Assembly: GCA_030634505.1 (NCBI GenBank)
Contig: DAOWAQ010000001.1
Coordinates: 1 to 25,074, forward strand
Length of the DNA: 25,074 nucleotides
Source: Calditrichia bacterium
GTDB lineage: Bacteria > Calditrichota > Calditrichia > JAJRVZ01
Reading direction: 5' to 3'
Shown here: positions 738-16,782 of the stretch, piece after piece
Layout: every line of letters begins with the position of its first letter
Position numbering within the stretch: the stretch's first letter is position 1
Position numbers and translations under genes: made by a program
Notes under the pieces: generated by a model
What the model was told of the DNA's origin: nothing
The model's input: the letters and a program-made list of their open reading frames with translations, nothing else
Databases searched by the model: none

Positions 738-1577
738 ATGAAAGCGTATAAAGTATTTAACAGTGATTGGACATGTAGGGGTTTTAAATTTAAAGTTGGT
801 AAAACTTACGATTTAGGAACAAATCCCATAATGTGCGAGCGTGGTTTTCATGCTTGTCTAAAAGTACAAGATTGTTTTAATTATTATTGTTTTGATCCAG
901 AAAACAAAGTAGCAGAAGTTGAATTACGCGGAATTGTTTTGGGTGAAAAAGACAAAAAACAATGTGCTGAAAAAATAACAATTATTAAAGAACTTTCTTG
1001 GAACGAAATGCTTATTTTAGCTAACACTGGGCTGGGGTGTTCTGGACACAGTAATAGCGGACACAGTAATAGCGGACACAGGAATAGCGGACACAGGAAT
1101 AGCGGACACAGGAATAGCGGAGACAGTAATAGCGGACACAGTAATAGCGGACACAGGAATAGCGGAGACAGGAATAGCGGAGACAGGAATAGCGGACACA
1201 GGAATAGCGGAGACAGTAATAGCGGAGACTGGAATAGCGGAGACTGGAATAGCGGATTTTTTAATTCAATAAAACCCGACACAATTTTTGTGTTTAATAA
1301 ATTGTGTGATAGATTTAAATGGGAATCGGCAGAAAAACCAAATTTTATCAGAAATCTAATTTTAAATACATGGGTTTATTTTTTCGATATGACAGATGAT
1401 GAAAAAAAGGAAAACCCAAAGGCTTATGTTTGTGATGGATATTTAAAAACATTTAATTATAAACATGCATGGAAAGTAGCTTTTGTATCAGCCAACGAAG
1501 AAGATATTAAATTATTAAAATCTTTACCAAATTTCGACAGCAGTGTTTTTGAAGAAATAACAGGATTAAAATTATAA
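738..1577 (+). CDS. Phage pentapeptide-repeat protein (DUF7666-like N-terminal domain plus G[HD][SRW]NS repeats)
   Basis: N-terminus KAYKVFNSDWTCRGFKFKVGKTY...CERGFHAC resembles a common phage domain; 14 GxxNS repeats in the middle; C-terminus LPNFDSSVFEEITG. Confidence 0.8.
   Translation: MKAYKVFNSDWTCRGFKFKVGKTYDLGTNPIMCERGFHACLKVQDCFNYYCFDPENKVAEVELRGIVLGEKDKKQCAEKITIIKELSWNEMLILANTGLGCSGHSNSGHSNSGHRNSGHRNSGHRNSGDSNSGHSNSGHRNSGDRNSGDRNSGHRNSGDSNSGDWNSGDWNSGFFNSIKPDTIFVFNKLCDRFKWESAEKPNFIRNLILNTWVYFFDMTDDEKKENPKAYVCDGYLKTFNYKHAWKVAFVSANEEDIKLLKSLPNFDSSVFEEITGLKL
1044..1253 (+). repeat. 14 tandem copies of a 15-bp coding repeat GGA[CG]AC[AT]G[TG]AATAGC
   Basis: Read directly: 14 x 15 bp; only unit positions 4, 7 and 9 vary. 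Confidence 0.97.
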
Positions 1578-1579
1578 AG

Positions 1580-2260
1580 ATGAAATTATACAAATTCAAT
1601 GGTTTAATGTGTAGGCCGGGAACAAATGATTACAAAACTGTGGCCGATGTTTTTGCCGGTAAATACAATCATGGTGGCCTACCTTTTGCAGTAGAGAAAG
1701 ATGAACGGTGGCTTGATGGTGGGGCCCACATTGGTGCATTTTCTGCACATTGCCTTCGCCGGGGTGCAACTCCCACAGCAGTTGAACCTAGTATTGATAA
1801 TTTTGAAATACTCCGGGCCAATATGCCGGGGCGTGTTAAAATAATTCATGGTTCGCTTGGTGTAAATGACGGGAATTGTGTATTATATAAAACACCATTC
1901 AAAGAATGTACTGAATTTACAACAGCGAAAACAGATGGCAATATGCCTACTGAAAGGGTTAGGGTTTATTCTATAAACAATCTTATCGAATCAAGTTTAA
2001 TCGATTGTGTTAAATTAAGTATATGTGGAAAGGAATCAGATATATTAGATTCAGCTTATTTAGGAGAGTTAAAAAAACTTGTTATTGAATACGATTTTAC
2101 TAAAAGCCGATCTATTAGTGATTTTCAAGATCGAATTAGATTTTTAAAGGCAATATTCGATGTTATATATATTTCTGAGAATGTTATTTATGCGTTAGAG
2201 AATCCAGAAGGACACTGGAAATTACTAATGAAGTCAAATATTTATTGTTTAAATTATTGA
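1580..2260 (+). CDS. FkbM-family SAM-dependent methyltransferase
   Basis: Motif I WLDGGAHIGAFS, then AVEPSIDNFEILRAN and DCVKLSICGKE (variant of the family KIDxEGxE motif). Confidence 0.8.
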   Translation: MKLYKFNGLMCRPGTNDYKTVADVFAGKYNHGGLPFAVEKDERWLDGGAHIGAFSAHCLRRGATPTAVEPSIDNFEILRANMPGRVKIIHGSLGVNDGNCVLYKTPFKECTEFTTAKTDGNMPTERVRVYSINNLIESSLIDCVKLSICGKESDILDSAYLGELKKLVIEYDFTKSRSISDFQDRIRFLKAIFDVIYISENVIYALENPEGHWKLLMKSNIYCLNY

Positions 2261-2742: not shown

Positions 2743-2990
2743 GACAAGAACCTGCATTTCCAAGAACAGAGGCAGATTTATTTGGAGGTGGATTTTGCGA
2801 AGGACAAACAGGAATGTCAAAACGATTTTATGCTGCATGTGCAGCAATGCAGGGGGTATTATCCGATGAAACTGCTATGTTGCAATTAATTAAATTTGCC
2901 AGAGAACGGGGGCGCAATGAAGGACGGAAATTTATTATAGAAGCCGCTTACGCACTCGCAGATGAACTTTTAAGACAAGAACTATTATGA
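2718..2990 (+). CDS. Conserved phage hypothetical protein
   Basis: PAFP...GMSKRFYAACAAMQG...AYALADELL pattern common in small phage ORFs; ATGA overlap with the next gene. Confidence 0.75.
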   Translation: MPRQKKKLGQEPAFPRTEADLFGGGFCEGQTGMSKRFYAACAAMQGVLSDETAMLQLIKFARERGRNEGRKFIIEAAYALADELLRQELL

Positions 2991-4662: not shown

Positions 4663-5271
4663 ATGGGATTAAACAAATCAAAAGGGAATTGCTGTATTTA
4701 TAGCATATATTCAAAATCAAATAAAAAGACGTATATCGGCTCAACAAATGATTATAATAAAAGAAAAAGACGCCATATATCAGATCTAAAACTAAACAGA
4801 CATCATTCAATATTACTTCAAAGACACTTTAATAAATATGGAATTGATGATATATCATTTGAATTATTAGAATATGTTAAAGAAGAAAAGGATTTAATCA
4901 CCATAGAACAAAAGTATATTGATAAGTATAATCCTTCATTTAATATCCTAACTGTAGCAGGAAGTCCCCTTGGACGAATATGCTCTGATGAAACAAAAGA
5001 AAAGCTGAGAAAAATAAATCTTGGGAAAAAATTATCAAAAGATACAAAAAGAAAAATGTCAAAAAGCAGAATGGGTAAAAAACGGAAACCATTTACAAAA
5101 GAGACATTAAAAAGAATGTCCGAAAGCAGATCAAAAAGAAAAATAATCAACACAAACACAGGTGCTATATATGAAGGATACAATAATGTTCCCATTGATA
5201 TGAAAACATCAACATTAAGGGCACAATTAATTGGTCAAAATTCAAACAAGACCATATATAAACTAGTATAA
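4663..5271 (+). CDS. GIY-YIG homing endonuclease with NUMOD3-type repeats
   Basis: CIYSIY...TYIGST...R...H, EQKYID...FN catalytic domain, then SDETKEKLR / SKDTKRKMS / TKETLKRMSES repeats. Confidence 0.92.
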   Translation: MGLNKSKGNCCIYSIYSKSNKKTYIGSTNDYNKRKRRHISDLKLNRHHSILLQRHFNKYGIDDISFELLEYVKEEKDLITIEQKYIDKYNPSFNILTVAGSPLGRICSDETKEKLRKINLGKKLSKDTKRKMSKSRMGKKRKPFTKETLKRMSESRSKRKIINTNTGAIYEGYNNVPIDMKTSTLRAQLIGQNSNKTIYKLV

Positions 5272-14417: not shown

Positions 14418-14716
14418 AACGAATAGGATTAGTGATATTTTATGCAATAAGTTGCGTGATATTGATTTTGGCAACGATAATCAAACCATTGTATGGAGCT
14501 GTGTATTTGTTGTACATGGCAGAACGTATTGGGAAGTATTTTGGTGAGAATAAAAACGATCCCAACAAAAAGGAATTATTCAAATGTCCTGAATGTGGGG
14601 AAAGCATAAGTTTGGAAAAATTGGCAAATTACAAAGGTTGTCCCAGTTGTGGAAATTTATTTAAGAATGCAAAAGTAAAACCTACTAATGGGAGCAAGAC
14701 AAAGAAGGCGGTTTGA
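14405..14716 (+). CDS. Membrane protein with C-terminal Zn ribbon
   Basis: N-terminal hydrophobic helix; CPEC...CPSC. Confidence 0.7.
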   Translation: MGILKRIGLVIFYAISCVILILATIIKPLYGAVYLLYMAERIGKYFGENKNDPNKKELFKCPECGESISLEKLANYKGCPSCGNLFKNAKVKPTNGSKTKKAV

Positions 14717-15476
14717 ACGTCAAATAATTAGACTTCGAAATCGTATAAACAAAAAAGGACAACAGATGGCATTTAATGCTATCAAAAAACAATATAAAAC
14801 GGTCTTTGACATGGTTGGGTTAATGTCTCCTGCAACATTGCTGGATAATGTTGAAATGTTTGTAAAGGAAGCACCTATAAGAAAGTTCATCGTTGATTAT
14901 TATGGCATGATGTCAGAAATAGCAATGTTATATCGAAATTATGCAATAAACACCAAAATCGATGATGCGGAATATTTTACAAATCGTTTCCTTGAAAAGA
15001 TGCGATCATACGCATTAGTAGAAGCCGGGGCAAATGTTGTAAGCATAACCGGGACATCCGAAACGTTTATCCGGGGAGCGATTGAAAGCGCAATGACCGA
15101 AGGTGTTGAACAGGGTTTTGGAATACCGAAAATAGGAAGACTGATTCGCAGAAATTTAAGCGAACAGTTAGGCGAAATCGGAGTAAGTAGGGCTAAGACA
15201 ATTGCACAGACTGAAATGACAATCAGTAGTAATTTGGCGGCCCAAGACGGGATACAATCAACCGGGTTTGATTATAGAAAGTTCTGGAGCAATTCCGGGC
15301 TCAAGGGAGTACGTGACAGCCACATGTTTGCACAAGATAATTATCCTAATGGTATTGCAAAAGAAGAGTTATTTGATATGGGAAATGGCAATGTAATGCG
15401 TTTTGTGGGCGATCCACAGGGGGCGGTCGCGGAGTTGGTTAATTGTAGATGTACAACATTGTATGAAGTTATTTGA
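14688..15476 (+). CDS. Minor head / head morphogenesis protein (SPP1 gp7 / Mu F-like)
   Basis: RAKTIAQTE, K.W...VRDSH, MRFVGDP and terminal VNCRCT. Confidence 0.9.
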   Translation: MGARQRRRFERQIIRLRNRINKKGQQMAFNAIKKQYKTVFDMVGLMSPATLLDNVEMFVKEAPIRKFIVDYYGMMSEIAMLYRNYAINTKIDDAEYFTNRFLEKMRSYALVEAGANVVSITGTSETFIRGAIESAMTEGVEQGFGIPKIGRLIRRNLSEQLGEIGVSRAKTIAQTEMTISSNLAAQDGIQSTGFDYRKFWSNSGLKGVRDSHMFAQDNYPNGIAKEELFDMGNGNVMRFVGDPQGAVAELVNCRCTTLYEVI

Positions 15477-15483
15477 AATAAAT

Positions 15484-15555
15484 AGTATTATAGCTCAGTG
15501 GTAGAGCAGTTCCCTGATACGGAAAAGGTCACAGGTTCAAATCCTGTTAATACTA
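15484..15555 (+). tRNA. tRNA-Ile (GAT), no encoded CCA
   Basis: Acceptor AGTATTA/TAATACT, D stem GCTC/GAGC, anticodon loop CTGATAC, T arm ACAGG-TTCAAAT-CCTGT. Confidence 0.9.
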
Positions 15556-15563
15556 CTAAATAT

Positions 15564-15636
15564 TGCTGGGTGGAGCAGTTGGCAGCTTAACAGGCTCATA
15601 ACCTGGAGGTCGCGGGTTCGAATCCCGCCCCGGCTA
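15564..15636 (+). tRNA. tRNA-Met (CAT), initiator-like, no encoded CCA
   Basis: Unpaired 1:72 (T:T), A11:U24, loop CTCATAA, T arm GCGGG-TTCGAAT-CCCGC; overall similar to bacterial tRNA-fMet. Confidence 0.88.
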
Positions 15637-15641
15637 CAAAG

Positions 15642-15848
15642 TTATTTGAAATTATGTAATATTTTATTGGCGATATTTAAATCGTCAGGCACGTATTCTG
15701 TAACAATATGGATGCTGGCGCTAATAGTCGATGAGTCAGATATTGATCTAAAATATACATCAATACTTGTCATTTCGAATTTATTTGGTTCTGATACGGT
15801 AGATACATTTACATAGTTTCTACTTATACTGTCTATTAAAATTTGCAT
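15642..15848 (-). CDS. 68-aa hypothetical protein on the antisense strand (moron-like)
   Basis: Lies in a non-coding gap of the + strand; A-rich context with A at -3; downstream of a consensus promoter; stop falls in the 14-bp repeat. Confidence 0.55.
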   Translation of the reverse strand: MQILIDSISRNYVNVSTVSEPNKFEMTSIDVYFRSISDSSTISASIHIVTEYVPDDLNIANKILHNFK

Positions 15849-15871
15849 AATACGTTCTTTTAATTATTGAA

Positions 15872-16042
15872 GTATGTTCATCCAGCAAACAGATTGAGAA
15901 GGAGTATTGACTTACTCACTCATTTAAATAATTGTTAACAACTTATTTAAAGTCTCAATCTGTCGGTGCGCAAAGAACGAATTGTTTTACCGCACTTTAT
16001 CCAGTTCTCCAATGGATGTCAACCCATTGCTTTATGGCATAC
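15872..16042 (-). ncRNA. Candidate structured RNA / 5' leader
   Basis: Several nested stems: GTATG/CATAC closing stem, 11-bp ACAGATTGAGA/TCTCAATCTGT, 9-bp TTTAAATAA/TTATTTAAA, GAGTA/TACTC, GTGCG/CGCAC and CAATGG/CCATTG. Confidence 0.55.
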
Positions 16043-16044
16043 AA

Positions 16045-16076
16045 CAAAGGTAATATAAATATTAATAACAAACAAA
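16045..16076 (-). promoter_or_regulatory. Bacteroidota housekeeping-sigma promoter, leftward
   Basis: Minus strand TTTG (16076-16073), 20-nt spacer, TACCTTTG (16052-16045); matches TTTG-N19-21-TAnnTTTG. Confidence 0.7.
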
Positions 16077-16086
16077 TTATAATACT

Positions 16087-16782
16087 ATGAAAAACGATGT
16101 AAGATATTTAAACTTCAAATTCGAAGTTAAAGCAGACTCTAAAGATGAAATGATTATCGAGGGTCACGGCGCTATTAAAAACGAAATTGACAGCTACAAA
16201 GAAGTTATAACCGATGGTGCATTCACTAAAACGTTATTGCAGCGCAAGGGAAGAATAGCATTTTGTTTGCAGCATGATATTTATAACCCGGTTGGGAAGG
16301 TGATGGAAATAAGAGAGGATGATAAAGGGTTGTTTGTAAAAGTGCGAATATCTGACTCAGAAGAGGGTGTTAAAACCAAAATACGCGAAAAGATATTGAA
16401 AGAAATGTCAATCGGGTATGTTACTATAGATGCCAAAAAAGGCGAAAAAGGTGGAGAGGATGTATTATTCTTAACTGAGATTAAATTATACGAAGTTTCA
16501 TTGGTAACAATTGCTGCAATGGAACATGCAATGATTGAGGCAATAAAAGCAGAAGGACAAAAAAACAGTGATGTTATTGAAGCCGAATTTGACAGGCTAA
16601 TAGGCATTACACGAAATACTGAGAAGAAATATGAAATCATGCAACTGAAAGCACTTGTTATGAGTTTGCCGTTAGATTCCAAAGGCACGGAAACGCCGCC
16701 AAAGAAAAAAGACACGAACAAAAATAAACCGCAAGTAAGAACAATTGATATGAAAGATTTTAATTTAAAAAAGAAAAAGTAA
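16087..16782 (+). CDS. Prohead protease, HK97 family
   Basis: IEGHGA...IDSYKEVITDGAF, LQHD, EMSIGY and KLYEVSLVT. Confidence 0.93.
   Translation: MKNDVRYLNFKFEVKADSKDEMIIEGHGAIKNEIDSYKEVITDGAFTKTLLQRKGRIAFCLQHDIYNPVGKVMEIREDDKGLFVKVRISDSEEGVKTKIREKILKEMSIGYVTIDAKKGEKGGEDVLFLTEIKLYEVSLVTIAAMEHAMIEAIKAEGQKNSDVIEAEFDRLIGITRNTEKKYEIMQLKALVMSLPLDSKGTETPPKKKDTNKNKPQVRTIDMKDFNLKKKK

Follow-up and report, generated by a model that had tools for sequence, protein, structure and literature searches.

The window, by which is meant the whole 25,074-nt stretch of DNA that was analysed, is an entire contig of a MAG, and its plus strand holds every large open reading frame. Within this plus-strand late operon there is a slot that runs leftward, as the sequence-only reading of the stretch had correctly recognised in describing the unit as antisense to the late transcript. 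The left flank of the slot is formed by a MuF-like head-morphogenesis gene (14688-15476, plus strand) and the right flank by an S78 prohead protease gene (16087-16782, plus strand), directly beyond which lies the major capsid gene. The MAG contains 20 hits to T9SS C-terminal sorting domains, and these indicate an affiliation with the Bacteroidota. The ENA scaffold_604 (L016, L027; 39,781 bp) is 99.95% identical to the window and represents the same phage. Coordinate mapping shows that positions 5006-5060 of the window bridge both ends of this scaffold unbroken, the two ends sharing about 55 nt, which means that the phage genome, of approximately 39.7 kb, is either circular or circularly permuted. 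Across some 35 kb of this circular genome of ~39.7 kb, nearly all genes lie on one strand. No integrase hit is on record in these 35 kb, nor was one found in three related contigs. The unit had also been proposed to be a lysogen-expressed moron; while its nature as a promoter-bearing accessory unit is upheld by the comparisons described below, expression in a lysogen is left unsupported, because no integrase was found.

Adjoining the MuF-like gene is a plus-strand cassette of tRNA-Ile(GAT) and tRNA-Met(CAT), identified by both ARAGORN and Rfam, in which the tRNAs occupy 15484-15637 and the whole, with its repeats, occupies 15466-15652. ARAGORN detected no third tRNA or tmRNA. The tRNA pair is flanked by perfect 14-bp direct repeats (15466-15479 and 15639-15652), which leave intact the ends of the two convergent genes, namely the MuF-like gene and the antisense 68-aa gene. 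In the related contigs L015 (440-470) and L017 (2460-2500) the tRNA pair is missing, and the ends of the MuF-like gene and the antisense open reading frame overlap directly. The tail-to-tail overlap in these tRNA-less relatives implies that the tRNA pair is an insertion that duplicated the overlap and thereby kept both gene ends. The start of tRNA-Ile also shares an 11-nt perfect inverted repeat with the region preceding the protease gene (15482-15492 and 16078-16088, 585 nt apart), which is probably due to chance.

At the opposite end of the slot, abutting the protease start, lies a candidate leftward promoter of the Bacteroidota sigma-A type (16045-16076, minus strand). Promoters of the sigma-ABfr type are defined by a -7 element TAnnTTTG, refined to the consensus TAHHTTTG (Baez et al. 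2019, PMC6847099), and by a -33 TTTG located approximately 19-21 nt upstream. Both elements are found here: the -7 box TACCTTTG at 16045-16052 (minus strand) agrees with TAHHTTTG, and it is preceded, across a 20-nt spacer, by TTTG at 16073-16076. The full pattern occurs five times in the window against 1.8 expected, which is a mild enrichment, and a pattern match would on its own be weak evidence for a promoter; it is the comparison with relatives that carries the support. In every one of the five close relatives that carry leftward cargo, a minus-strand -7 box lies 35-45 nt away from the protease start, and the columns of the box are invariant across the alignment of the five. Among 17 distinct relatives whose gaps are short and free of cargo, none possesses such a box. 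The promoter proposed at 16076-16045 from the sequence alone is thus supported. Given the promoter geometry of Flavobacterium (PMC6847099), in which position -5 is taken by the G of the -7 box, leftward transcription is predicted to start at A16040.

A search for an intrinsic terminator of the leftward unit gave none. Furthermore, there is no -7 box on the plus strand between 14614 and 17267, and transcription of the protease and capsid genes consequently has to read through the stretch between leftward promoter and 68-aa gene. Where cargo-less relatives have a gap of 48 nt or more, a plus-strand box precedes the protease in most of them, whereas the clade of the window has none. Among the relatives L033 to L075, which are without leftward cargo, a plus-strand TAnnTTTG box is usual 20-45 nt upstream of the protease start.

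The gene at the far end of the leftward unit, here called ORF-B, encodes 68 amino acids (15642-15848, minus strand) and belongs to an orphan family. Just two relatives were found among billions of proteins, P0001 (94% identity) and P0124 (52%), both of which are the same length as ORF-B and have the same tail-to-tail overlap with a MuF-like gene. The copy with 94% identity is the one on L015. The ten nucleotide differences between ORF-B and its counterpart in L015 are distributed 1, 3 and 6 over the first, second and third codon positions, and the frame on the opposite strand of ORF-B is broken in L015. With the alignment of the three sequences, AF2 produces a beta-beta-beta-alpha model of three long beta strands and a C-terminal helix (pLDDT 87.6); the model obtained from the single sequence is poor (pLDDT 54). 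Together, the homologues, the bias of the differences toward third positions, the broken opposite frame, and the confident model imply that ORF-B, the 68-aa frame said to begin about 25 nt after the structure, is a real gene. It does begin 24 nt past the outer stem described below. Neither Pfam, PHROGs nor PADLOC returned a match for ORF-B, and a Foldseek search with the model yielded nothing at E <0.01 in PDB or BFVD. The Foldseek output does include weak COMM-domain-like rows.

Immediately upstream of ORF-B is an A-rich linker (15849-15875, minus strand) that forms its translation initiation region, and in which A residues at -3, -12 and -13 fit the initiation preferences of Flavobacterium (PMC6847099). 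The linker is 90-98% identical to those of the related contigs L015, L017 and L021, while the sequence on either side of it differs. The GC content of ORF-B is 29%, compared to 35-40% in neighbouring genes. ORF-B and 25 nt of upstream linker are together 94.5% identical to L015, as opposed to 66-70% for the flanking MuF and portal genes, which argues for a recent exchange of the module between phages. It can thus be stated with confidence that the head module contains a leftward accessory unit with a real and recently exchanged 68-aa gene.

The contents of the slot differ widely from one relative to another. The gap between the MuF-like and protease genes measures anything between -26 and over 1200 nt, and its contents are present or absent between genes that are adjacent elsewhere, which is the pattern looked for in a moron; the P0006 contig, for example, has no gap and no slot content. 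In L015 the slot holds a 50-codon ORF-A (89-241) followed by the 68-aa ORF-B, and the AUG of ORF-A lies exactly at the predicted +1. In L021 (4869-5163) there is a 63-codon ORF-A, and then a 30-aa hydrophobic peptide that replaces the 68-aa gene. This peptide resembles a small membrane toxin or holin-like peptide. In both contigs 5 nt separate the AUG of ORF-A from the -7 box G, so that this AUG would coincide with the predicted transcription start and make ORF-A leaderless. The two ORF-A sequences have only their last 11 residues in common (ending ...QPYFNN), and a search with that of L021 retrieved only itself. The DNA encoding these 11 residues makes up a linker with the next 15 nt, and this linker is 95-98% identical between phages that agree at approximately 77% in their flanks.

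The window itself retains both extremities of ORF-A. At the predicted +1, with the same spacing from the -7 box as in L015 and L021, lies the remnant AUG-CCA-UAA (16032-16040, minus strand), in which the start codon is preserved and the frame is cut to two codons. The last four codons have likewise been kept, since the linker contains the final codons and the stop of the ancestral ORF-A. A comparable replacement is seen in L017, to which the metagenome or IMG/VR contigs L019, L020 and L022 are identical: its slot contains a different non-coding structured leader and a 109-aa orphan ORF-B. The leader (2826-2955, minus strand) has z-scores of -2.66 and -2.60, and its 15-bp closing stem is followed by a U-rich run. 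Part of the conserved linker is retained between this leader and the 109-aa frame. In L018 (2890-2962, minus strand) and L030, the slot is instead occupied by a minus-strand tRNA that begins approximately 12 nt after the leftward -7 box, and which this promoter therefore appears to drive; the L018 tRNA has the unusual anticodon AAT and is called as Ile.

A protease-profile search of contigs returned distant relatives only. In several more distant relatives (L056, L076, L053, L068 and L043) the same gap contains one to four antisense orphan frames of 48-172 aa, and in L045 it contains an antisense 333-aa radical-SAM gene (872-1873, minus strand). The gap is therefore a long-standing hot spot at which accessory genes are read antisense. 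Pfam recognised no domain in the 109-aa frame of L017 or in the slot frames of the more distant relatives, any more than in ORF-B; for the small upstream frames and the 30-aa peptide the scan covered PADLOC.

Between the remnant start codon and the linker lies the stretch that the sequence-only reading had described as a highly structured RNA of nested stems closed by GUAUG/CAUAC and folding in the leftward orientation. The stems themselves are present. The outer 5-bp GUAUG/CAUAC stem (16038-16042 / 15872-15876, minus strand) encloses an 83-nt three-way junction (15885-15967), in which a perfect 11-bp helix (15889-15899 / 15953-15963; 11-12 bp as the closing helix) surrounds two hairpins: a near-perfect AT-rich palindrome at 15923-15951 and a hairpin of 5-7 bp at about 15901-15920. 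The 5' half of the leader (15968-16031, minus strand) contains an 8-bp hairpin (16010-16029) and, at its border with the junction, a weak GUGCG/CGCAC hairpin (15966-15995). The outer stem would nevertheless close the leftward RNA only in part, because its first two bases lie upstream of the predicted start at A16040 and would be absent from the transcript.

In terms of energy, the plus strand of 15851-16050 ranks first of 1000 by composition-adjusted MFE among 200-nt sliding windows, above the tRNA region. Comparison with shuffled controls shows where this stability resides. The junction core (15885-15967) has z-scores of -5.07 on the minus strand and -4.99 on the plus strand, with none of 300 shuffles being equally stable, while the 5' half (15968-16042; z -0.66 minus, -1.30 plus) falls within the range of the shuffles. 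The fold thus withstands shuffling through its core, and the rest of the proposed nest of stems does no better than chance. For the whole element, the z-score is -3.26 on the minus strand versus -5.26 on the plus strand. G.U pairs that appear on the minus strand had been taken as support for the leftward orientation, yet each strand gains G.U pairs of its own, in different helices, and the plus strand folds the whole element better; the minus orientation is therefore not favoured. The core itself comprises 31 predicted pairs with almost no mismatches and one G.U on the minus strand. Such near-perfect pairing suggests either selection or a very recent origin, and it is left unexplained if the leader is merely passive. 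Since the core folds equally well on both strands, it could also form in DNA.

Searches for relatives of the folded stretch were negative in every collection consulted. Rfam gave no match at its gathering scores, and relaxing the cut-off to E 10 brought up just the two tRNAs and chance-level hits, so that the proposed Infernal scan provides no family to which the element could be assigned. There is no second copy in the MAG by BLAST, word-7 blastn or nhmmer, and no copy in approximately 185 related genomes (100 relatives and an overlapping 86-genome set of phylum scope), in GenBank phages, or in IMG/VR as searched with four patterns, exact or degenerate. Across 35 sources, the core's covariance model found no second copy. 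The junction pattern, when run over JGI metagenomes, matched a single contig, identical to L017. The structured leader of L017 shares a 12-nt word with that of the window, but 481 of 1000 shuffles align as well, and kinship between the two was rejected in favour of chance. In the absence of any homologue, there is nothing to compare for covariation.

Several known classes of element were considered and rejected for the folded stretch. Small self-cleaving ribozymes such as the hammerhead contain a three-way junction whose catalytic core is conserved and left unpaired. Here just 0-2 unpaired nucleotides separate the helices, so that the unpaired core of a hammerhead-type junction is lacking, and no ribozyme family, hammerhead or other, appears in the Rfam search at E up to 10. 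MITEs are present in several copies per genome and possess terminal inverted repeats and a target-site duplication; the present element occurs once in the MAG and in none of the related genomes searched, and has no flanking target-site duplication. Membership in a curated riboswitch or cis-regulatory family was likewise discarded, there being neither an Rfam match nor homologues. The statement that the RNA is no recognised riboswitch or ribozyme therefore stands. By contrast, the proposal that the fold of approximately 170 nt is a conserved cis-regulatory RNA or small RNA is not supported, given the lack of a homologue anywhere searched and given L015, in which ORF-B occurs without the fold: the stretch between promoter and ORF-B in that contig has the same length as in the window, but is unrelated in sequence and unstructured (z +0.19 and -0.39). 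The folded RNA is a one-off without relatives, and not a recognisable regulatory RNA family.

Together, these observations favour, with a probability of roughly 0.6, an interpretation in which the gap between the MuF-like and S78 protease genes would be a lineage-wide antisense accessory slot, transcribed leftward and opposite to the late operon by a host promoter of the Bacteroidota sigma-A type that abuts the protease start, and carrying in the window a real, swapped 68-aa gene. In the order of transcription, the slot of the window would comprise the leftover start codon of ORF-A at +1, a non-coding leader of about 165 nt, the A-rich linker, and the 68-aa gene. The folded stretch has taken the place of the leaderless small ORF-A, so that the leader is a lineage-specific replacement rather than a conserved riboregulator, and its sole significant structure is the 83-nt three-way junction. 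The fold is most likely a passive structured 5' UTR or a by-product of recombination; as a 5' UTR, its effect would not go beyond stabilising the message, with the initiation region largely open. A role on the plus strand, a site acting at the level of DNA, or a true switch is in each case less likely. The better folding of the whole element on the plus strand, and the need for late transcripts to cross the folded stretch, are evidence against this interpretation.

The latter two points also speak for an element of the late transcript, lying between tRNA-Met and the protease, that would control processing or stability and shield the 5' side of the protease-capsid message once the tRNAs have been cut out. 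Consistent with such a role, the plus strand has not only the lower z-score and the first rank among the windows, but also a better-defined fold, with a centroid near the MFE structure, and the plus-strand box that usually precedes the protease in cargo-less relatives is missing from the clade of the window. Yet the core folds as stably on one strand as on the other, the additional stability of the plus strand comes from the weakly supported outer parts, and relatives of the same gene order do without the fold, so that this role appears unlikely. The indifference of the core to strand is also consistent with an element that matters as DNA, either as the scar or passenger of the recombination that removed ORF-A, for instance a palindromic insertion, or as a palindromic binding site for a protein. 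The core helices are perfect Watson-Crick inverted repeats, including the near-perfect 29-bp AT-rich palindrome, and both the window and L017 have lost ORF-A to unrelated sequence, with end points that differ between the two and a long inverted repeat closing each replacement. The single copy in the MAG, the absence of others from the approximately 185 related genomes and IMG/VR, and the lack of a target-site duplication beside the core speak against a DNA element, which is accordingly held to be distinctly unlikely.

The leftward RNA might also act in its own right. The expression platform of a riboswitch works by masking the initiation region or by forming a terminator, and the sequence-only reading had seen the hint of a switch in the motifs CUGGAU and CAUCCA. 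These do occur in the leader, the former twice and the latter once, and they permit further alternative pairings. In addition, 15972-15983 is complementary to 15849-15860 in the initiation region at 11 of 12 positions, and in the ensemble of the full leader with 100 nt of ORF-B this pairing has a probability of approximately 0.39, the initiation region being about half unpaired. The leader could therefore be a new cis-acting switch, in which 15972-15983 would pair either with its own hairpin or with 15849-15860 and so make translation of ORF-B dependent on temperature, or on a ligand or protein. Nonetheless, 7.7% of shuffled leaders contain 8 nt that are perfectly complementary to part of the 25-nt initiation region (p = 0.077), so that the complementarity lies within chance. 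Furthermore, the 5' half that holds 15972-15983 is not significantly structured, the junction core makes no contact with the initiation region, homologues and an Rfam match are lacking, and L015 has the same gene without such a leader. A switch of this kind is thus very unlikely, and the same small chance is assigned to the broader proposition that the leader toggles between two folds as a new class of RNA switch on ORF-B translation, or that the junction is a new plus-strand processing signal. Least probable is a stand-alone small RNA gene expressed from the leftward promoter, with the 68-aa gene read through or separate: while L018 and L030 have a tRNA gene at this very position relative to the promoter, no terminator or U tract follows the structure in the window, the RNA corresponds to no tRNA, tmRNA or Rfam family and has no homologues, and the initiation linker follows directly, without a second promoter.

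The preferred interpretation, that of an antisense accessory slot with an exchanged 68-aa gene and a lineage-specific leader, would mean that, in uncultivated Bacteroidota phages, the head module has an antisense slot at a fixed position and equipped with a promoter. Through its conserved junctions, this slot would exchange tiny orphan genes, leaderless frames, tRNAs, and odd non-coding pieces. The reading of the stretch as a new riboregulator is unsupported, which spares effort on a singleton structure. The best guess as to the role of ORF-B, based on its position and mix-and-match behaviour, is that it may serve in host takeover or anti-defence; to our knowledge, few genes with such functions are known in Bacteroidota.

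Among known systems, the leader resembles structured 5' UTRs, riboswitches, and RNA thermometers in that a structured stretch separates the start codon from the predicted transcription start, and in that the initiation region could be masked by an alternative pairing. It differs from these classes in that conservation, covariation and an Rfam family are lacking, and in that the gene also occurs without the leader. The slot as a whole is reminiscent of a moron, a concept of Juhala and Hendrix for the extra genes of lambdoid and HK97-like phages, which have their own promoter and terminator and are expressed from the prophage. Like a moron, ORF-B is present in some relatives only, between otherwise adjacent genes, with its own promoter and a lower GC content; unlike a moron, the unit has no detected terminator, and the lack of an integrase hit leaves no sign of a temperate phage.

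The upstream frame, for its part, recalls the geometry of leaderless genes in Bacteroidota (PMC6847099), since in the window, L015 and L021 the G of a TAHHTTTG box lies 5 nt before an AUG, so that the A of this start codon would be the first base of the mRNA. Most Flavobacterium transcripts were found to be leadered (PMC6847099). The leaderless frame is intact only in the relatives, the copy in the window having been cut to two codons.

The closest known system, by analogy, appears to be the anti-CRISPR (acr-aca) locus of Mu-like Pseudomonas aeruginosa phages (Pawluk et al. 2014, PMC3993853). There are clear differences between the two. The acr-aca locus is read with the late operon, whereas the present unit is read against it; the acr-aca locus includes a helix-turn-helix aca gene, whereas the slot has none among the scanned frames and no further gene; and the host here belongs to the Bacteroidota, with no resemblance to known Acr proteins in either sequence or fold. 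An anti-defence role for the slot genes is therefore suggested by analogy alone. Yet variable small orphan genes at a fixed, promoter-bearing site, as would be expected of such a locus, are what was found. Both loci place small orphan genes at a fixed site between conserved head genes, directly upstream of the protease/scaffold gene, with a conserved promoter of their own and in mix-and-match combinations (PMC3993853). The slot is thus the same kind of place in which anti-CRISPR genes first turned up in Pseudomonas phages, and this resemblance makes its contents a short list of candidates for host takeover and anti-defence.
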